From NCBI GenBank assembly GCA_963843575.1, contig CAWJKZ010000019.1, positions 160,001 through 224,000 on the forward strand: DNA of 64,000 nt, written 5' to 3'. Below, piece by piece: positions 1,392 to 23,133 of this stretch; position 1 is the stretch's first letter, and each line of letters opens with the position of its first letter. Made by a program: the position numbers and the translations under genes. The stretch comes from an uncultured Acidobacteriota bacterium (GTDB lineage Bacteria > Acidobacteriota > UBA6911). The notes below the pieces were generated by a model that was not told the DNA's origin, searched no databases, and saw only the letters and a list, made by a program, of their open reading frames with translations.

Positions 1392-2740
1392 GTGGACCTG
1401 TTCGAGCAGCGCAAGATCTACTCCGTCTTCGAAATCACGTCCGAGATCAAGAGGACCCTGGACCGCATGGGAGTCCTGTGGATCAAGGGAGAGATATCGA
1501 ACTTCAAACACCACTCCTCCGGCCACATGTACTTCTGCCTGAAGGACGAGCGCGCGCAGGTGAAGGCGGCGTGTTTTCGAGGCAGCAACGCCTACCTCAA
1601 ATTCCGCCCCGAAGACGGGCTTGAAGTGCTGGCACGCGGGCGCCTGAGCGTCTACGAGCCGCGCGGCGACTACCAGGTGCTCGTCGATTACATGGAGCCG
1701 GTGGGTCTGGGTTCGCTCCAGCTCGCATTCGACCAGTTGAAGGAGAGGCTCCGCCGGGAAGGCCTGTTCGACGAGGCCCACAAGGTGGCCCTGCCCCTGC
1801 TGCCGGGCAAGGTCGGGATCGTCACATCGCCCACCGGCGCCGCCATCCGCGACATCCTGCGCATCCTCAAGAGGCGGAACGCCTCGCTTCACGTCCTGCT
1901 CTACCCGGTCAAGGTGCAGGGCGCGGGCGCCCGCGACGAGATCGCCGCCGCGATCCGCTACTTCAACCAGCGCTCCGACATCGACGTGATCATCGCCGGC
2001 CGCGGCGGCGGATCGATCGAGGACCTCTGGGCATTTAACGAGGAGGTCGTCGCGCGCGCGATCTACGCCTCGGACGATCCCGGTCATCTCGGCGGTGGGC
2101 CACGAAGTGGACTTCACGATCGCCGATTTCGTCGCCGACCTGCGCGCCCCCACGCCCTCGGCGGCGGCCGAGATGGTGTCGGGTGCGCGCGAAGACCTGC
2201 GGGCGACCGTGACGTCCTTGCAGGGGAGGCTGTCGCAGGCGATGATGCTCGGCTTCGAGAGGCGCCGCTCGGCGCTGGATCGACTCTCCCGCAACCGCGC
2301 CTTCATCACCGCACCCAACCGCGTCAAGGAACTGCAGCAGAGGTTCGACGAAGCGGCGCTGCGCATGAACCAGGCGATGGAGCGCTACCTCACGAGGCTC
2401 GGGCGCCGGCGCGAAATCGCCCAGACGCGCCTCGTCAGGCTCGACCTGCGGAAGGCGATCGCCCATCGGCGCGAAGTTCTCGCGCGCAACCACCAGGGGT
2501 TGACCGCCTGCATGCGGGCCCGGCTGCGCCAGGAGCGCGCCCGTCTCGCGCTGGCCGCCGGCCGCCTGGACGCGCTCAGCCCGCTGGCCATCCTGCAGCG
2601 CGGCTACGCCATCTGTCGCGACGAAAACGGGGCAATTCTGCGGGACGCTGCCGCCACACAGCCGGGCCGCCAGGTCGGAATCAATCTGGCCCGCGGGAGT
2701 ACTCCGCTGCCGGGTCGAAGATGTGGTCGAGTCCCCTTGA
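1392..2740 (+). CDS. xseA: exodeoxyribonuclease VII large subunit (apparent frameshifts at about 2080 and 2697)
   Basis: [36 protein letters not shown], then in a shifted frame [25 protein letters not shown] and [13 protein letters not shown]. Confidence 0.92.
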
Positions 2741-2829
2741 TATTGTTCGGGTCCCCGGCGCCTTCGAGGTGACGAGTTCCTTGACCGGATCGAAGGGCCC
2801 CGAGGTTCGAACATTGGAGCGTAGTTATC

Positions 2830-6577: not shown

Positions 6578-7171
6578 TTACCGGAAGAGGTCGATCCCCA
6601 TCCTGCGGCACATCCGGTCGAAGAGGGCTACGGGGAAGCCCACGATGTTGAAGTAGCATCCCTCGATGCGGTCGATGAACAGGGCTGCGAACCCCTGGAC
6701 CGCGTATCCCCCCGCCTTGTCGCGGTACTCGCCCGTCGCGGTGTACCAGCGGATTTCGCGGTCGCTCAGGCGCCGGAAGTGCACGCGCGAGCGGCTGAAC
6801 CCGGACCTGAGCCGGCCGGAGGCGCAATCCAGCAGCGCGAGCCCGGTAATGACCTCGTGCCAGCGTCCGCTCAGCGCGCGCAGCATCGCGGTAGCCTCGT
6901 CCCGGGATCCGGGTTTTCCCAGCACGGTCTTTCCCGCGACCACTATGGTGTCCGCCCCGACGACGAGCCCCGAGCGGCGGCTGCCGGCGACTTCGCGCAC
7001 CTTGATGCGCGCCACGCGGACCGCATACGCCGAGGCCGTCTCGCCCCGCCGCGGCGGCGGTTCGGGAAGCGAACTCGGCTCGACCGCAAAACCGAGTCCC
7101 AACCCGTGGAAGATCTCCTCGCGCCGCGGCGAGGCGGACGCCAGCACCCAACGGCTGCTGCTTGTTGTCAT
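6578..7171 (-). CDS. maf: Maf family nucleoside triphosphate pyrophosphatase
   Basis: VLASASPRREE, GADTIV, LGKP, DKAGGYAVQG, GCYFNIVGFP. Confidence 0.95.
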   Translation of the reverse strand: MTTSSSRWVLASASPRREEIFHGLGLGFAVEPSSLPEPPPRRGETASAYAVRVARIKVREVAGSRRSGLVVGADTIVVAGKTVLGKPGSRDEATAMLRALSGRWHEVITGLALLDCASGRLRSGFSRSRVHFRRLSDREIRWYTATGEYRDKAGGYAVQGFAALFIDRIEGCYFNIVGFPVALFDRMCRRMGIDLFR

Positions 7172-7244: not shown

Positions 7245-8277
7245 ATGAAACAGACACTCGGCATTGCCGCCCTGTCGTTCCTGCTCGTTGCCCGGTTCTG
7301 CACCGCATCCGGCCCCGCGCGGCCGCAGGCGACAGCACCGGCGGCACCGGCCACGACGTTCCCGGAAAAGCTACTGGAGGGGGAGCCCGATTTCAACCTC
7401 GCTTTCCTCATCCAGGGCGACCTGCGCGGGAACTACGGGCCGTGCGGCTGACCGATCAACCCGATGGGCGGTTTCGCCCGCAGGACAAGCTACTGGAACG
7501 CCTTCGCCAGGAAATACCCGGAGCGGCCCCTGCTTGCGGCTCGACGGAGGCTCGTTCTTCACCCTCGGAGTAGCCGAGGCTGCCTCAATCAACCGCTGGA
7601 TGCTCGAGGGGACATACCGGTCGCGCCTGGATGCGCTCAACCTCACGGCTTGGGACCTCCCCGCGTGGCAGGAGATGTGGGACCTGGCCGCCGCAGGTCA
7701 GCTGCCGCGCCAGTTCCTCGACCTGCCGCTCGTCTCCGCGAACGTGAAGGCGAAGGCACCGAACTTTCCGGCTCTCCGGAAGTTTGTCTTCAAGGAGCTC
7801 GTCGTCGACCCCAAGTCCGGGACGAAGCTGCGCGTCGGGATCAGCGGCGTGCTGTTCGACCCGGAAGAGCGCATCTCCCGCGAGGAGTTCAACGTCAAGG
7901 ACCCGCAGGAAGCCGTCCGGCAGGTCGTTGCCGAGATGGAGCCCGGCAGCGACTACCGGATTATCATGATCGACGCGGGCGTGGGCAAAGCCATCAGCCT
8001 GGCCGCCGTTGTCCCGGGCATTAACCTCATCATCGTCGCCCACAACTACGAGGAGATCCTGGAACCACAGCAGGTCGGCGACACCCTGATCTCGGTGCCC
8101 GCCAACGAAGGCCGCCTGATCAGCGAGGTCCGGGTGTCGTTTCAGCAGGGATCCCAAAGCCTCGGCGTGCACACCCGTTTCGTCCCCCTGGACCGCTCCG
8201 TCCCGGACGACCCGGAGATGAGCGCCCTGATTCGCAAGGCCCAGGCGGACGTCGACGAATTCAAGCGAGCCCGGTGA
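7245..8277 (+). CDS. secreted UshA/5'-nucleotidase-like selenoprotein (CGU motif, Sec at TGA 7449-7451; apparent +1 indel at about 7535)
   Basis: Signal peptide, then GDLRGNYGPCG-TGA-PINPMGGFARR in one frame, matching the PCG(C/U)xxxxGGxxRR motif. After one indel it continues as RLDGGSFF...PLVSANV...IIVAH...DDPEM. Hairpin GGGCG-GTTT-CGCCC lies 14 nt after the UGA. Confidence 0.8.
7466..7479 (+). promoter_or_regulatory. putative bacterial SECIS apical hairpin
   Basis: Perfect 5-bp stem GGGCG/CGCCC with a GUUU loop that begins after a 19-nt spacer following the in-frame UGA. Confidence 0.7.
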
Positions 8278-8765: not shown

Positions 8766-11297
8766 ATGCTTCAAAGGTACGGTAACCCCGCACGATACTG
8801 TTTATTGCTCTGCCTCCTGGTGACGGAACTTTCGGCACAAACAAGGATCCGTGTACGCGTCGAACCCAACGCCGGGGATGTGACCGACAAGCTTGTTTTC
8901 GACACCAACCTGGACACGACCGACAACATCGCCCCCAACATAATCTTCACGGCGGACTCCAGCCGCGGGTTTGTCGCTTATCCGGGCTCCGGAACCGTTG
9001 CGGTTTTTTCCGTGCAGAGCGGCGCCGTGCTGAACCGGATCCCCACGGGCGGCAAGCCGTACTGGGGACTGCTGCTGCCTGACGGCCACACGATCGCGTA
9101 TACCTCGGTCCTGTCGAACGAGCTGTTTCTCGTCGACGAAAGCAGCGCGCTGCAAGTCGGCGTCTGGTCGTTCGCCGGTGCGCAATTCGGTTTCGGCAGC
9201 ATACCAGTCCTGTCGCCCGACGGAGTGTACGGCTACATCTCTTCCACCGGCACGGGCGAGGTCATCAAGTTCCGCGTCGCGGACGGCAGGGAGGAGGGGC
9301 GCCTCAAGGGAGTCCCCACGCCCGCCCAGCTGGCCGTCTCCAGCGACGGCGCCACCCTCGTAGTGGTGGAAACCACCAACGAGGAGATCCTTTTCGTCGA
9401 CACCGCAGCGCTTACAACAAAGGCCACCATAAAGCCGCCGTCAGACAGGGCCATTAATTTCACGATCTTCAACCGCCCGGTGCTTGCACCGGACGGCGTC
9501 ACGGGTATCATCGCCAGCCGCGACAACAACGGGATCCTCGGATCCGACTCCGTCTACCTGTTCAAGACGGCCACGGGCGAACTCCTGGATACTGCCAGCA
9601 TCGGGTCCGAACCCGGTTTCACGGGCCTCACGCCCGACGACCGGTACTGGGCCGTCTTCTGCGAGTTTACCATCTCGCTGATTTCCACCGCGGACTTCAA
9701 GACGCGCCGCGAACTCTCGCTGTCTCACGGCGAGCCGATCGGTTCGGCCAACATCGTCTTCAGCCCGGACTCGAAGCTGGCCTACTACGCGTCTTCGGCC
9801 GACGACCTCGTCTACGAGCACCAGATCGACAACGACGCCATCCTCGGGCAGTTGCTGGTCGGCGACAACCCCGACACGGTCCTGGAGCAGCCCTCCGCGA
9901 TGGCCATGACCCCCGACGGGAAGACGCTCGCCGTGCTCGAGTTCGCCAGCAACAACATCGACCTGCTGACCCCGGTCTGGACCCTCGACACCCCCAAGTA
10001 CATCAACTCGCCCGGCCTCTTCACCGGTCTGACCCTCATCAACCTCTCCGACACGGCCAACAAGTTCACCGTGTACGCGCTCGACAACTACGGCCAGCTC
10101 TTGAACGAGACCGGCGTGACCAACCCCGTCACCTACGTCCTGGAGCCCAACGCCCAGGTCTCGAAAACCGTGGCGCAGATGTTCACGCTCGACAGCACAA
10201 AGGAAACGACCGGCTGGATTTCCGTCTTCAGCGAACAGCCGCGGGCGACCGGGTATCTCTCGATCGGGGACAACAGCCTGAACCGGCTCGATGCCGTTCC
10301 CCTGTTCGCGTCCACCTCGTCGACCGACTGGGTCATCCCGGAAGTGGCCAGGCACGAGGGGACCCTGCTCGAACTCAACTACGTCAACCCCACCTACACC
10401 CAATCCCTGTTCAACACCACGCGCTATGCCGTCGACGGCACCGTGCTGGCCTCGAGCACCGGCAACGTCGGCTACCCCACCAACCGACAGACCCAGTATT
10501 TCGGCGACCTGTTCCCGGACCCGGCCGAGGTCAGCGACGGGTACGTGCGGGTCACTTCCAACAAGGGGATGATCTTCACCGAATTCCTGACCACGGCCAA
10601 CACTGCGACCGAGCTGAACGGCATCGATGTCAACCGCTACAGCGGCATCTACACCCTCTACTCCCCGCAGTTCGCGGTCACGCCGGCGTTCAACACGATT
10701 CTCAACGTGATCAACGCTAGCCCCGAAGACGCCGACATCACGGTCACACTCCACGCGGCCGACGGCTCCCCCGTGGGGCAGCCCTATCACACGCGACTGG
10801 TCAAGGGCGCGCAGCTGAAGCGGAACCTCGCTATCCTCTTCCAGGGCGACCCTGCCGTGGCAGACATCACCGGCTGGCTGGAAGTGGCTAGCACCAAGGA
10901 CCGTGTTCTGGGCACCATCACCTTCACAAACGAACAGGCCTCGTTTGCGACGACCTTCGAACTCCTGGGCACCCCGCAGGGGAATTTCCTGTTCCCGGTT
11001 CTCGCCCAGGACGACGTGTATCAAATGGGCCTCGCGCTCCTGAACCCCGGCGCCGAACCCGCCCGGCTGACCCTCGAAGTCCGGGGAGAGGGCGGGGCCG
11101 TCGACGCGACCACTGAGCTAACCCTGCCGGCGAGACACCGGACCGCCCTGTACCTGCCGAGTTTTTTCCCGAACATCGGGCCGCGGCTGACCGGTCACGT
11201 GGGGGTGCGTTCGGACAAGCCTCTACTCGGCTTCTCCCTCATCCACGACGCGGGCTTCACGTTCATGACCGCGATCCCCGCCATCCCCATCCCGTGA
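8766..11297 (+). CDS. secreted YVTN/YncE-like beta-propeller protein with C-terminal beta-sandwich repeats
   Basis: Signal peptide; repeated (L/F)(S/T)PDG blades; C-terminal [10 protein letters not shown] / [12 protein letters not shown] repeats. Confidence 0.75.
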
Positions 11298-15276: not shown

Positions 15277-17054
15277 ATGCCCCTGTACTCTGACGGTGTG
15301 CTAGACGAAGTGCGGAATTCCGTCAACATCGTGTCGCTCGTCTCCGAATATGTCGCGCTCAAAAAGCGCGGCCGGAATCACGTCGCCCGGTGCCCTTTCC
15401 ACACCGAGAAGACCCCGTCGTTCAACGTCAACGAAGAAAAGCAGATCTTCATGTGCTTCGGCTGCGGCGTCGGCGGCGACGTCTTCAAATTCGTCATGCA
15501 GGTCGAACACCTGACCTTTCCCGAGTCCGTGCGCTTCATCGCAGAACGCTACGGGGTCGCGCTGCCCCAGACCGCCGCTCCGGCCGAGGACGGCGGGGGC
15601 AGCCGAGCCGCTGCGCAGGGCCATGGCGGAGGCGTGCAGCTTCTTCCACCGCCTGCTGCTCGAATCGGAGGAGGGGCGCCCGGCGCTGAAGTACCTGGAA
15701 GGGAGAGGGGTGACGCGGGCAACGATCGACCGCTTCGCCCTGGGTTACTCGCCGGCCGACGGCAATGGGCTCACCCAGGGCCTGTCGAAGCTCGGCATCG
15801 ATGCGGCCTTGCTCGAGCAGTGCGGCCTCACCAAGCGCTCCGAGGACGGGAAACGCCTCTACGATGTGTTTCGGGGGAGGGTCATGTTCCCCATCACCGA
15901 CGTGCGCGGCAGGGTGATCGCCTTCGGCGGCCGGGCCATGGGTGACAGGCAACCGAAGTATTTGAATTCCCCGGAGACGAGGCTCTATAATAAAAGTCGC
16001 AACCTTTTCGGCTTGTATTTCTCCCGGGAGGGAATCAAGCGTCTGGACTTCGCCGTGCTGGTCGAAGGCTACATGGATTTCGTGGTGCCCTTTCCAGCAC
16101 GGGATCGAGAACCTGGTTGCTTCGCTGGGAACGAGTCTGACTCCCCAACAGGTCCAACTGCTCGGTCGGTACACTCGCGAGGTCGTGGTGAGTTACGACC
16201 CTGATTCTGCGGGCCTTGCCGCGACGCAGAGGTCGCTCGATCTTTTTTTGGAGGAGGATTTTCGAGTCAGGGTACTTCGCCTGCCTGACGGTCAGGATCC
16301 CGACGCCTTTATAAGGAAGACAGGGGCGGCCGAATACCGGGACCGATTGCGCGCGTCCACACCCTACCTGGACTTCGTGCTCGATGCGGCAATTCACAGC
16401 CAGGGCAGTCTGGATAACCCCAGGAATAAAATACAGGTCATAAATGCGGTTCTGCCGTACCTGGCCAAGTTGCCGAACGCTGTGGAGCGATCCGACTACG
16501 TATTCCGGTTCGCCCGCAGACTGCGCATCGAGGACCAGCAGTTGCTGGCGGAAGTGAAGCGTGCCGCCCAGCAGAAACGAACCCGGCTTACCGAGGCCCC
16601 GCTGGCGTCCCTCGGGGCCATGAAGTTCGCGGAAAAGCGACTCCTCCAGGTGCTGCTGGGCAATACGTGCGCTCCAGTCGGAGATCCTGCCACTGTGCTC
16701 CGAGCGGGTTTTCGACGGGTTGGCGACCGAGAAGATTTTCGCCGTGATCACTGGAGGAGCTCCGCAGCAGCCGGATTTGCACGTTCGACCTTCTACAGAG
16801 CCGCTTCGCGGGTCAGCCCGAGCAGGCGCTCGCCGCGCAGCTGCAGATGGAGGAAGTCCCGGAGGACCTGTCGCGCGACGCCGCGGAGAGCTGCTACAGC
16901 GCGCTGCTCGCGCTCCGGCTCGCGCACGACAAGCAGGAGATCCTCAGCCAAGATCGACGACGCGGTGCAGCGCAAGGACGACGAGATGCTCAACCGCCTC
17001 ATCGAGCAGCGCGTGCTCGTCGATCGCGAACTGGTCAGCCTGTCCAGGAAATAG
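15277..17054 (+). CDS. dnaG: DNA primase (several apparent frameshifts)
   Basis: [22 protein letters not shown] zinc finger; [37 protein letters not shown] spread over frames; upstream of rpoD. Confidence 0.93.
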
Positions 17055-19006: not shown

Positions 19007-19705
19007 GTGGCGACTGATCCTGCGCAACTCGAGTCGGTGGAACTGCTGTTCTCGTGCGCCGAGAACAGGGACGATACCGAGCTCTGGTCGGAATTCCTCC
19101 GGCGCTTCGCACCAAAAATCAAGATCTTCATTCGAGGGACGATCCGGCAGGAAGGCAACCGGTCGTGTTCAGGCACTGCCGGGTTGCCGGACGAGGTGCA
19201 GGGAAGCGACCTGTTCCAGAACACGATCGTCCGGCTCATAGAGAACGACTGCGCCGCGATTAAGCGGTTTTCGGGCGATACGGAATCCGAGCTGCTGGCC
19301 TATCTGGCCGTCATCACCCGTTCCGTGGTCCGGGACTACCTGCGCTGGACCCGGGCGCTGAAACGCGTCCCCGTATCCAGCACCACGACGACGGATGCCG
19401 ACAACACGGCCCGATTTCTGCAGGGCCCGGCCGCACCCGGTCCCGCCATCGAACGCGGCATTCTGATCCGCGAGCTGAACGAAATCAGCGTCGACGCCAT
19501 AAGAAACAACTCCGGCCCATACTCGGCGCGCGACCTGATGATCTTCAAGCTCTACTTCGACCGGGACCTGTCGATCGCCCAGATCGCCGGTTGCAAGGGC
19601 CTCAAGCTGTCCAAGACGGGAGTCGAGAAGGTGCTCAATCGCCTGAAAAACAGGATCCGGAGCGTCGCAGCGAGCTCGGCAGCTGGAGCGGTGGAACTTC
19701 GATGA
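19007..19705 (+). CDS. ECF-type sigma-70 family factor
   Basis: Region 2-like WSEFLRRF..DLFQNTIVRL..YLAVITRSVVRDYLR; region 4-like RDLMIFKLYF..LSIAQIA..LSKTGVEKVLNRLKNRIR. Confidence 0.85.
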   Translation: MATDPAQLESVELLFSCAENRDDTELWSEFLRRFAPKIKIFIRGTIRQEGNRSCSGTAGLPDEVQGSDLFQNTIVRLIENDCAAIKRFSGDTESELLAYLAVITRSVVRDYLRWTRALKRVPVSSTTTTDADNTARFLQGPAAPGPAIERGILIRELNEISVDAIRNNSGPYSARDLMIFKLYFDRDLSIAQIAGCKGLKLSKTGVEKVLNRLKNRIRSVAASSAAGAVELR

Positions 19706-22700
19706 CATCCAAAGCCAGGACAACCGACAGCGCCTGCCTCGACGACAACGATCTCTACGGCTACGTGACCGGGTCCCCAGGGACGCGGCCGGCCGAGGAG
19801 CTCGAATTGCACCTCGCGAGCTGCGCGGTGTGCCGCGAAGAGTTGGCCGGGCTGCTCGAACTGCTTCACCCGGAAGCCGACGACGCGCCCGAGGCGGAGC
19901 CCGGCTGCCCTTCTCAAGAAATGCGGAACACCCTCGAGCTCATCCGCCAGACCTCGGGGCCACGGGCCGGAAACAGTTCCGGGCGCCGCTGGTATCAGTG
20001 GGGCGCTGCCGCCGCTGCTGCCGTGTTCGTCCTCGGCGTTCTGGCCCTGGCCGCACTTCGCCTGTACGAGGGCGCGAAGGCCGGGGCGCTCTCGGCCCAG
20101 GCGCGCGCGGCCCTGCAACACGCCTACGCGCCCCGGAGCCCGAACGACCTCCGGCTCGATCTTCCCTTCGCGTCCGACGAGTCGCAGCGAAGCCCCGAGC
20201 CCGCCGGCAGCCTGGAAAGCGCCGAGGCGTTCTACCACGGGGCTCTGGGTGTCAGGGATGGCCTGCGGGAACCCCTCCTCGGCCTGGGATACATCTACCT
20301 GCGGCAAAACCGAACCCCCCAGGCCCTCGAGCAGTTTCAACGCATACTCGACTCGAGCGCCGCTGACATCCAGGCGTTGCTGGGCCGCGGGGTTGCGCGG
20401 TACGAGAGCGCCATGGCCGCCACCGATCCGACCGAGCGGAGCGGCGCCCTGGACGCCGCGCTGGGCGACTTCGACGCCGTACTCGCGCTCAAGCCGGATT
20501 CGCACGAGGCTTCGTTCAATAAGGCCCGCACGTTGTTCGAGCTGGGGCGCCACCAGCAGGCCGTACGCGAGATCGAGTCGTACCTCGGCCGGGACCCCGA
20601 CTCCATCTGGGGCAAGAAACTCCAGGAACTCAAAACCCGGATCCTCATGAACCGCTCGGAGCTGTTGGACCGCGAGGTCCAGCGCGCCGCGAGGGCCAGG
20701 GACGCACCCGCGCTGGAGCGCCTCGCCCGCATCGTCCCCGAGAAAATCCCTCCAATAATCCGCAGCCTCCTCCTCGAATCGCTGACCGTCGCAGACAATA
20801 CCGATCCATCCGGCCTGTCGTGGGCCGCCGGCGTCCTGGAAGCGTCGCGCCGCGCCGCCACGGGCGACGCCAGCGGCGCCGTGCTGTTGAAACAGTACCG
20901 CAGTTTTTCCCAATCCCAGCGCCGTGCCCGGCGCGAGCTGAACGCGCGCCTCGAACGACTCATCGCGTCGTTTTCCGGCGGGGGCATGCTGCCGGCCCTG
21001 AAAGGAAGCGACGGACTCGCCGTCGCGCTGGAGCGGTGGCGGGACCACTGGCAACTGGTCCGACTGTACCAGTTGCGGGGCACCGCGCGGTTTTATGGCC
21101 TCTCCGATTTCGCCGGCGCCACCGCCGAGTACCGGAAGATGCTGCGCTGCGCCGAGCTGTCCACCGATCCTGACCTGGTCGCGCGCTCGCTGGCCGCGTT
21201 GAGTTCGTCCTACGGCGAGGAGGCCCGCTACGACGAAGCCCTGACCGCGCTTTCCCGCCTCAAACAAGTCGCGCGTAACTCCGGGCTGCGCTCGTGGACG
21301 CTTTTTGCGTGCAACTCCCTCGGGGCCGTCTATCTGAAGCTCAACCAGCTGCAGGAGAGCCTGCGGGAGTACTCGTCCGCCCTCACCCAGGCGTACCGGG
21401 CGATGGATCACGAGTCTCTCGTCCTCGCGCTCGAGAACCTCGGGGTCGTCATGGAACGGCTGGACCGGTATCCGGAGGCGCGCCGGTTCTACGCCGAGGC
21501 CGGCCGCATGCAGGCCTCCCTGCTGTCGGACGGCATCCTGCAACCGACGCCGGACACGGAGGCGCGCCGACGCAACCTGCTGGCCAAGGAGGGATCGCTC
21601 GCCCTCCGGTTGAAGGACTTCCCCGTAGCCCGGGCCCGTTTCGAGGAGTCGCTGCCGCATCCACCCACGGGCGTGACGGAGTTGGAGGCCAGAGACCGTA
21701 TCGGCCTTGCCCAGGTGTGCATCGAGGAGGGGAAGCTCTCCGAGGCGGAGGGCGAGGTGAGACGAGTCCTGGAGATCGCCTCGGCCAACGCGCTCCCGGA
21801 GGCAACCTGGCAGGCCCACAGTCTGGCCGGCTTTATTCGGGGACGCGCGGGAGACGACGAGGAGGCGCTTCGGCACTTCGATGCCGCCACCCAGGTCCTG
21901 GAACGGATGAGAACGCGGATCTCCTCGCCCGACCAGCAACGGTCTTTCCTGGCCCCGCGTTTCGATCCGTACCGCGAGCCGATTCCCTTGCTGTTCCGCC
22001 TGCACAAGGCGCCGGACGAAATCCTCGCCGCCGTCGATCGGGCCAAGTCGATGACCCTGCGGGAGTCGTTGCGTTCGCGTTCCGGCGCGCCGGATGTCGC
22101 GGGCTCGTCCTGGGCTTCCGGCCCGGCCGCTGCTCGACTGCCGCCCGGCACCGCCGTCGTGGACTATTTCCTCTGCTCCGATCAGGTCTTTGCGTTTGTT
22201 TCGGGCGAGCGTGGGAGCGACGCCGTCCGCCTCGGCGTGGCGCCGGATGAGCTTGAAGCCTCCGCCTCCGAGTACGTCGAGAGCATCCGGACCGGCAATT
22301 ACGAATCGTTCTCGAGCCTGTCTCGAACTCTCCACGAGGCCCTGATCGATCCCATCCTGCCGGCGATCGCGGAGCCGTCGGTGCGCGCCCTGATCATCCT
22401 GCCGGACGGCCCGCTCCACCTCGTGCCGTTCGCCGGCCTCACGGACCCCGCTGGACGCTGCCTGCTCGAGCGGTATGCGCTGTCGTTCGCGCCTTCCCGA
22501 AGCGTCCTCAGCCACTGCCTGGCGGCCGGCAAGGCCGGAGGCTTCACGCGGAGCTCGACGGTGCTGCTGATGGACGGCAGCGCCAATCTCCCGGGGTCGG
22601 CGCGCGAGCTGGGTCGCATCGGTGCGCTGTTTGAGCGAAACAGCCGGATGGCGACCTTCGCCGACCTTGGGGCCCTGGACTCCTCCCTTGGGACGTTTGA

Positions 22701-23133
22701 GATCATTCACTTCTCCGGGCACGCGGAGATGCGCGGCGGCAAACCCGCGCTGGTGTTCGGATCGCGCCCGCGCGAGGCGTACCTGGAAGGTCCGTCGATC
22801 CAGGGGTGGAGGCTGACCCGGAACCGGCTGGTTACCCTGGCAGGCTGCGATACCGGGCTGGGACCCATATCCGGCGGCGAGATGCCCTGGGGCCTTGTCC
22901 CGGCATTTCTGAGCGCCGGCGCCCCCGCCGTCCTGGCCACCGTTCTTCCTGCCGAAGATGCCGACACGTTCCGGCTCACGGCGCGCTTCTACGAGCTGCT
23001 GGCGCGAGGCGGCATCTCGAAAGCGGGTGCATTGCGGGAAGCACAGCTGAACGTTGTTCGCTCCACTCCCGGCCCGTGGCCCGGCCGCCCGATCGCCTGG
23101 GCACCCTTCGTCCTGGTGGGTGACCCCAGATAG
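19702..23133 (+). CDS. zf-HC2 (zinc anti-sigma) - TM - TPR - CHAT caspase-like protease
   Basis: ATGA overlap with the sigma gene; HLASCAVC; hydrophobic WGAAAAAAVFVLGVLALAAL; TPR repeats; CHAT motifs LIILPDGPLHLVPFAGL, IIHFSGH, VTLAGCDTG, GLVPAFLSAGA, WAPFVLVG. Confidence 0.9.
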   Translation: MTSKARTTDSACLDDNDLYGYVTGSPGTRPAEELELHLASCAVCREELAGLLELLHPEADDAPEAEPGCPSQEMRNTLELIRQTSGPRAGNSSGRRWYQWGAAAAAAVFVLGVLALAALRLYEGAKAGALSAQARAALQHAYAPRSPNDLRLDLPFASDESQRSPEPAGSLESAEAFYHGALGVRDGLREPLLGLGYIYLRQNRTPQALEQFQRILDSSAADIQALLGRGVARYESAMAATDPTERSGALDAALGDFDAVLALKPDSHEASFNKARTLFELGRHQQAVREIESYLGRDPDSIWGKKLQELKTRILMNRSELLDREVQRAARARDAPALERLARIVPEKIPPIIRSLLLESLTVADNTDPSGLSWAAGVLEASRRAATGDASGAVLLKQYRSFSQSQRRARRELNARLERLIASFSGGGMLPALKGSDGLAVALERWRDHWQLVRLYQLRGTARFYGLSDFAGATAEYRKMLRCAELSTDPDLVARSLAALSSSYGEEARYDEALTALSRLKQVARNSGLRSWTLFACNSLGAVYLKLNQLQESLREYSSALTQAYRAMDHESLVLALENLGVVMERLDRYPEARRFYAEAGRMQASLLSDGILQPTPDTEARRRNLLAKEGSLALRLKDFPVARARFEESLPHPPTGVTELEARDRIGLAQVCIEEGKLSEAEGEVRRVLEIASANALPEATWQAHSLAGFIRGRAGDDEEALRHFDAATQVLERMRTRISSPDQQRSFLAPRFDPYREPIPLLFRLHKAPDEILAAVDRAKSMTLRESLRSRSGAPDVAGSSWASGPAAARLPPGTAVVDYFLCSDQVFAFVSGERGSDAVRLGVAPDELEASASEYVESIRTGNYESFSSLSRTLHEALIDPILPAIAEPSVRALIILPDGPLHLVPFAGLTDPAGRCLLERYALSFAPSRSVLSHCLAAGKAGGFTRSSTVLLMDGSANLPGSARELGRIGALFERNSRMATFADLGALDSSLGTFEIIHFSGHAEMRGGKPALVFGSRPREAYLEGPSIQGWRLTRNRLVTLAGCDTGLGPISGGEMPWGLVPAFLSAGAPAVLATVLPAEDADTFRLTARFYELLARGGISKAGALREAQLNVVRSTPGPWPGRPIAWAPFVLVGDPR

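Follow-up and report, generated by a model that had tools for sequence, protein, structure and literature searches.

Positions 7245 to 8277 on the plus strand of the window, a stretch of 64,000 nucleotides from an uncultured Acidobacteriota bacterium, hold a single gene whose in-frame UGA codon is very likely read as selenocysteine (Sec). The case for recoding consists of the conservation of the UGA, the presence of Cys at the same column in homologues, a constrained hairpin downstream and the Sec machinery of the genome. Judged by its motifs, the product is a pseudo-phosphoesterase bearing a Cys-x-Sec (C-x-U) loop. On balance, this predicted exported protein of 343 residues is probably a thiol/selenol oxidoreductase of the periplasm that works by means of its Cys-Gly-Sec loop. 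UshA-like proteins with a CxU motif are catalogued already (NF041198; GOS 2008), and the short, heme-less, decayed form described here is a variant of that kind. The features of the locus are as follows.

6578..7171, minus strand: maf-like gene, the conserved upstream neighbour, giving positional context
7245..7531, plus strand: 5' part of the coding sequence, with signal peptide, Pro/Ala linker, strand 1, P-C-G-U loop and GGFARR helix
7245..7307, plus strand: predicted cleavable signal peptide of about 21 aa, recognized by eye from its basic start and hydrophobic core
7443..7451, plus strand: Cys-Gly-Sec codons TGC GGC TGA, where Sec would be residue 69
7461..7484, plus strand: bacterial SECIS-type element, assigned from folding, stem-codon constraint and the model in PMC13188914
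7532, plus strand: single extra base (G), located from contig ends of sequencing runs X3 and X4
7533..8277, plus strand: 3' part of the coding sequence, with the remaining calcineurin-like domain and a C-terminal helix
8274..8570, plus strand: dciA, which overlaps the selenoprotein stop codon, the conserved downstream neighbour
8766..11297, plus strand: predicted exported beta-propeller/DUF5719 protein, a conserved further neighbour

The in-frame UGA codon

A 68-aa open reading frame (7245-7451) ends in GNYGPCG at a TGA (7449-7451); past this codon the frame stays open and reads PINPMGGFARR, as the original prediction had it. The joined gene has 343 codons (7245-8274 minus one base), in agreement with the product of about 340 aa that had been proposed, and its true stop is the TGA at 8275-8277. 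The in-frame codon is TGA rather than TGC or TGT in independent sequence as well: contig 3 of run X4, which covers 7290-7531, reads TGA and differs from the window over that range in one letter, at 7435. The arrangement PCG-TGA-x5-GGFARR is found in 46 of 48 close loci, and the remaining two end short of the site. These 48 comprise the window, nine genome loci (L032-L040) and 38 metagenome loci (L090-L127), with G009 excluded and eight loci that repeat already-searched genomes counted once. Among 30 loci that turned up in 61 genomes searched, the column holds TGA in 22 and TGC or TGT in seven, and the site is deleted in one (G009). Cys aligned with the UGA was found in one close full-length homologue (P0102, PCDC, E 2.4e-108) and in many distant ones. 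Together with the Sec machinery and the TGA in the independent contig, these Cys forms support the proposed recoding.

A 77-nt frame-shifting deletion, at about 1480-1510 of the G009 locus (L031), takes out the PCG-TGA codons; metagenome loci that are near-identical to it (L091-L098) are intact at the site. The deletion may be either a misassembly or a real loss.

Were the UGA a real stop, the locus would encode a 68-aa exported peptide and a separate protein of about 270 aa starting at MGG. Database gene calls read it in this way, with 93 of 96 homologues beginning at or after the MGG 3' of the UGA; this is the splitting by gene callers that the recoding proposal had foreseen. The hairpin alone is also unremarkable, as discussed below. 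A real stop is nevertheless scarcely credible, given that neither TAA nor TAG ever stands at that column among loci covering the site, that the Cys forms run continuously through it, that in the structural model the segment before the UGA forms the first strand of one undivided domain, and that the Met of MGG is present in 25 of 28 loci and so is not invariant. The terminal stop of the eight intact orthologues is a mixture of TAG, TAA and TGA, with TGA in just two.

The frameshift at 7532

The two coding parts stand in different frames, and a single indel at about 7535 had been proposed to join them. The frame switch is present in the assembly, but it is placed at G7532 instead. A contig from run X4 aligns up to 7531, after which four letters are clipped. 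In run X3, from another study, a contig begins to align at 7533, and the four letters ahead of that point are clipped. Both are at least 99% identical to the window. Among three single-base hypotheses compared, an extra G at 7532 alone fits both contig ends, and no contig in eight runs bridges the position. On this indirect evidence, the extra base is most likely an assembly error.

Similar damage is seen elsewhere in the genome. The xseA gene (window 1392-2772) is broken into two by a frameshift, dnaG (window 15277-17054) is spread over three open reading frames, the first and last of them matching the dnaG family, and the true 5'-nucleotidase gene of the genome (G000:C17:46386-46906) is frameshifted too. 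Frame switches occur in five of 40 matched loci tested, a count that includes the selenoprotein gene itself and one antisense open reading frame, which may span several genes. The assembly is indel-prone, and other split-gene findings in this genome warrant equal caution.

It is highly improbable that a gene encoding a selenoprotein in the lineage has become a genuine pseudogene, inactivated by the frameshift, in this strain. The frameshift does stand in the assembly, other members of the family have lost the gene, and the deletion in G009 runs over the motif. Against this, the alignments of contigs from two other studies, despite their high identity to the window, both end exactly at 7532, and essential or housekeeping genes (dnaG, xseA, selA and selD) are equally broken, in keeping with the frequency of frame switches among the tested loci.

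A SECIS-type hairpin with constrained codons

The hairpin that had been described, a perfect GGGCG-GUUU-CGCCC with its loop 19 nt past the UGA, is present in the window. The upper stem pairs 7466-7470 with 7475-7479 around the GUUU loop (7471-7474), and is extended by a U-G pair (7465/7480) and by lower CC/GG pairs (7461-7462/7483-7484). The bSECIS model, as given in an excerpt of PMC13188914, has a loop of 3-9 nt with G at position 1 or 2, a stem of 4-16 bp, a spacing of 16-37 nt and a minimum free energy (MFE) of -7.5 or lower. The element fits this model with its 4-nt loop, stem of 5-6 bp, spacing of 19 nt and MFE of -13.2 kcal/mol.

Hairpin stability was rejected as stand-alone evidence, being within chance: the MFE has a z of -1.22, 21 of 200 shuffled sequences are equally stable, and a perfect 5-bp hairpin of the same geometry follows 1398 of the 12789 TGA triplets of the contig (10.9%). 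Such a hairpin also lies in range in two of seven Cys homologues, and a strict test that allows Watson-Crick pairs only is failed by six of 11 distant TGA homologues.

The stem codons are more informative. They were counted over 28 loci dereplicated at 90% identity, which are kin and thus non-independent trials. Among these kin loci the first Gly is GGY in 28 of 28 (background 0.54), the Ala is GCY in 28 of 28 (0.49), the Phe is TTC in 28 of 28 (0.72) and the second Arg is AGG in 25 of 28 (0.14), whereas the loop codon varies freely, with all four synonymous forms occurring. In an alignment of 20 full-length genes, five of the 62 columns that are conserved hold one codon at a frequency of at least 85%, and four of the five are stem codons. 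Changes in the upper stem are one-sided G-U wobbles, save one mismatch; compensatory pair changes in the upper stem were not found across the loci compared. The conservation of the hairpin, unlike the hairpin itself, thus appears to exceed chance.

Selenocysteine machinery

The original prediction called for a search of the genome for selA, selB, selC and selD, and selA, selB, selD and tRNA-Sec were all found. The selB gene is intact. The selA gene (G000:C8:2714-3463) lies in four frame-shifted pieces and is in a single frame in most relatives, while selD (G000:C13:704799-705723) has one frameshift and an in-frame TGA of its own. The TGA is in locus L017 (G000:C13:704799-705260), which reads SCAG-TGA-ASKL; selD itself is probably a selenoprotein form.

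Among 60 relatives, selA is present in 58 and selB in 57, carriers of the Cys form included. Since both genes are near-universal, a correlation between the Sec or Cys form and the machinery is uninformative. No match to selB was obtained in G011 (860 contigs) or G047 (490 contigs), though both have TGA forms.

Predicted export and fold, and a decayed active site

The protein had been described as secreted, which agrees with the signal peptide predicted by eye in the window and in orthologues. It has no lipobox, and the N-termini are alike in the nine orthologues compared. An AlphaFold2 model of an intact orthologue has a pLDDT of 92.6 overall, its least confident part being the motif loop (pLDDT 59, residues 31-40). 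In Foldseek searches the model matches the N-terminal domains of SoxB, bacterial 5'-nucleotidases and CD73 with TM scores of about 0.7-0.76 over the query, and these matches cover just the N-terminal domain of targets of about 520-550 aa. A profile search also gives a sequence match to 5'-nucleotidases (E 1.6e-9). Neither piece nor the intact orthologue matches a Pfam family.

Five motifs (DxH, GD, GNH, H and GHxH) hold the metal and catalytic residues of this fold, and just the Asp of motif I and one His of motif V are left. The Asp lies within strand 1 (QGDLRG) in the 5' part of the gene, and the 3' part carries the decayed motifs DGGS, NLTAWD, MID and AHNY. The clade as a whole has GDLRG, DGGS, TAWD, TD or ID, and AHNY, so that DxH has become DxR, DxGD has become DGGS, GNHE has become TAWD and the motif-IV His has become Asp. 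All eight intact close orthologues keep the motif-I Asp, and seven of the eight keep the motif-V His. The genome encodes a true 5'-nucleotidase elsewhere, on contig C17, with DTHSH, DAGD, GNHEF, SHAG and GGHSH. It had been proposed that UshA/5'-nucleotidase-like proteins carry PCGC or PCGU before the GGxxRR motif. This holds for the UshA-like family but not for true nucleotidases: the C17 enzyme runs from DTHSH to GGIARR without PCG.

An active 5'-nucleotidase or 2',3'-cyclic phosphodiesterase that happens to hold Sec is very unlikely. Fragments of the protein do bear such names in JGI, and the sequence and fold matches to nucleotidases are real. However, the bridging Asp, the Asn-His of motif III and the His residues of motifs I and IV are all replaced, Pfam Metallophos gives no match at E 0.01, and the C-terminal nucleotide-binding (substrate) domain is absent, the protein ending at about 340 aa without a Pfam match there. 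Because so little of the active site is left and the substrate domain is missing, the protein is best described from its sequence as a pseudo-phosphoesterase.

The surface is strongly conserved, with a mean column identity of 65% across 30 close homologues, and the Cys and Sec of the motif are the sole Cys or Sec residues of the mature chain in eight of eight orthologues. It is rather unlikely that the two serve as soft-metal ligands which, joined by the Asp of motif I and the His of motif V, restore a metal centre that would scavenge or sense metal or carry out an unusual hydrolysis (e.g., of a sulfur compound, as in SoxB). The motif does come after strand 1, where nucleotidases hold their first metal ligands, and the Asp and His are kept as just described. 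SoxB is an exported protein of the same fold that acts on sulfur. It is the top fold match (PDB 4uwq and 2wdc, E 2.4e-17), but it ranks barely above the nucleotidases, and with the NCBIfam model of SoxB, whose cut-off is 550 bits, the score is 39. In addition, members of the wider CxC/CxU family (L044-L054) keep the motif while their Asp and His vary freely, and so the retained residues are not tied to it. The likeness to SoxB is further limited by an identity of 16%, a match to the N-domain only, a decayed metal site and TIGR04486 scores of 37-42 bits against the cut-off of 550. No sox genes are found among the annotated neighbours at the locus.

Placement among UshA-like selenoproteins

NF041198 (UshA_like_PCGU) is the best NCBIfam match for every piece and orthologue, and the 5' part of the gene alone matches its profile with E 2.7e-5. 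The likeness consists of PCGU before GGxARR, the calcineurin-like domain and the signal peptide. The differences are in score and length: four intact orthologues reach 89-98 bits against a cut-off of 275, and the proteins of the clade (338-351 aa) are without the tetraheme tail. The tail of NF041198 is of the c554 type and occupies model positions of about 345-519, as read from the matches of the model. Members above the cut-off (L043 and L055) have it; there are four CxxCH motifs in tailed members and none in eight of eight intact orthologues. Tailed members such as L055-L059 also keep DxGD, the motif-IV His and GGH, and the clade of the window is more decayed.

Other relatives are more distant. 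NF049981 (UshA-like (seleno)protein family 2) is a 262-position model with weak likeness around the motif, and differs in that its motif is CxxU in the excerpt of PMC13188914, whereas here it is CxU, and scores are 22-31 bits against a cut-off of 140. The N-terminal metallophosphoesterase domain of UshA, CD73 and CpdB shares the fold and the GGxARR helix, but the window protein has lost most of the dimetal ligands, the catalytic His and the entire C-terminal substrate-binding domain, and has gained the CxU loop. The protein belongs with the broad UshA-like selenoproteins, having CxU on a COG0737-type domain. PMC2398784 lists "COG0737, UshA-like" with CxU and 76 selenoproteins, and tables of PMC9312934 and PMC13188914 list the UshA-like family. 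Excerpts of the main text of PMC13326102, PMC12013277, PMC13510729 and bioRxiv 2022.07.06.499078 contain no UshA passage. In the literature searched, we found neither a functional study of any UshA-like selenoprotein nor a description of the short heme-less branch, which may still be listed. Matches in the ESM Atlas were to unnamed clusters only, commonest in Acidobacteriota, and a first scan of the genome contigs with a single protein gave no match.

In a tree of 93 sequences (FastTree, midpoint root), the window protein falls in a heme-less clade of its own with support of 1.0. Frameshifted L040, the N-terminal piece from the window and representatives shorter than 250 aa, longer than 560 aa or without the motif region were left out. 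Three full-length members of the clade, P0005, P0012 and P0090, each from one contig, are without Cys and Sec, and P0005 is the sister of the window protein. Cys and Sec are thus lost together in three of three motif-less homologues. Since these three are full length, the protein may do something without the C-x-U motif.

A non-catalytic envelope protein with a binding or scaffolding role, in which C-x-U is an accessory staple or a regulatory switch, is improbable. The whole domain of the three motif-less members and the conserved surface point in that direction. On the other side, a costly UGA and SECIS are kept in 46 of 46 close loci covering the site, and protein databases hold a disproportionate share of motif-less forms, since no others get called full length.

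A tailed Sec paralogue is encoded in the same genome (G000:C25, about 146086-147500, minus strand; loci L080 and L081). It reads PCG-TGA-TQPAMGG, has four CxxCH motifs and 473 aa, and is the long form of the UshA-like selenoproteins. The CxC-type domain is fused to the tetraheme c554 domain in L043, L055 and this paralogue, and to DsbA-like domains in P0109, P0141, P0192 and P0245, the last three of which have CxxC. Fused UshA-like domains are also seen in P0247 and P0238, the fusion partners overall being DsbA-like and tetraheme domains or DUF1573; fusion proteins of about 1200 aa have two CxC sites.

Genomic context

The order nadK-maf-gene-dciA-beta-propeller-rpsO is conserved in relatives (Acidobacteriota/Terriglobia). 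The neighbours are housekeeping genes with no redox partner among them. Tailed L043, which scores 277.8 bits against NF041198, holds the same position at the dciA/propeller locus in another family, and this suggests that the tetraheme tail was lost in the clade of the window, with the deep nodes of the tree being weak on the order of heme loss or gain. The gene is missing upstream of dciA in five relatives (G005, G006, G007, G024 and G025), and is thus dispensable.

The beta-propeller neighbour was considered as a partner and rejected; it has no conserved Cys and persists at loci from which the selenoprotein gene has disappeared. One copy of it (L072:4669-7650, minus strand, G057) has a cluster of ten Cys at residues 440-489 that is absent in the other copies examined. 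Next to a Cys-form homologue in G044 lies a GrdB-like open reading frame (PF07355; L074:6559-7305, minus strand) followed by one of 87 aa; the two may be a further gene that a Sec codon has split. Further along the window (19007-23133, plus strand) an ECF-type sigma factor precedes a 1180-aa protein, whose anti-sigma-like and TPR-like matches are all below cut-off. A promoter and terminator scan gave nothing useful.

Proposed function

Support for the proposed redox role of the predicted exported protein is circumstantial. It comes from a hydrolase site that has decayed, from Cys and Sec being conserved or lost as a pair, from the fusions to redox domains, and from CxU in human SELENOF, where it is a redox motif according to an excerpt of PMC9304195. 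In this model, SelB would bind the GNUU hairpin and insert Sec at the UGA. After export, the C-x-U pair would cycle between the thiol/selenolate and selenenylsulfide states, making or breaking S-S bonds in protein disulfides or sulfane-sulfur species. Long members of the family would receive electrons from the fused tetraheme c554-type or DsbA-like domain, and the short heme-less form would receive them in trans from a separate partner that replaces the missing heme domain. The full-length clade members without Cys and Sec, sister P0005 included, speak against the redox reading, as does the finding that the neighbouring genes include no partner for it.

A more far-reaching scenario is tentative, and we regard it as possible rather than likely: a dead phosphatase fold would have been turned into a periplasmic selenoenzyme that stands alone, is not of the thioredoxin type, dropped its ancestral tetraheme tail at the same locus, takes electrons in trans and cleaves or forms S-S bonds outside the cytoplasm.

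Implications

Lists of selenoproteins have included the UshA-like CxU kind since 2008, and neither a new recoding mechanism nor a new selenoprotein class is involved here. The gene model is wrong across the clade, with 93 of 96 database homologues truncated at the N-terminus. Several of these bear a nucleotidase name that their active-site residues contradict, and intact copies score below the NCBIfam selenoprotein cut-offs. The heme-free form of 340 aa lends itself to expression and assays, and it occurs naturally in Sec, Cys and motif-less variants. If the reading as a repurposed selenoenzyme is true, this small, single-domain form would be the simplest handle for finding out what the UshA-like selenoprotein family does.
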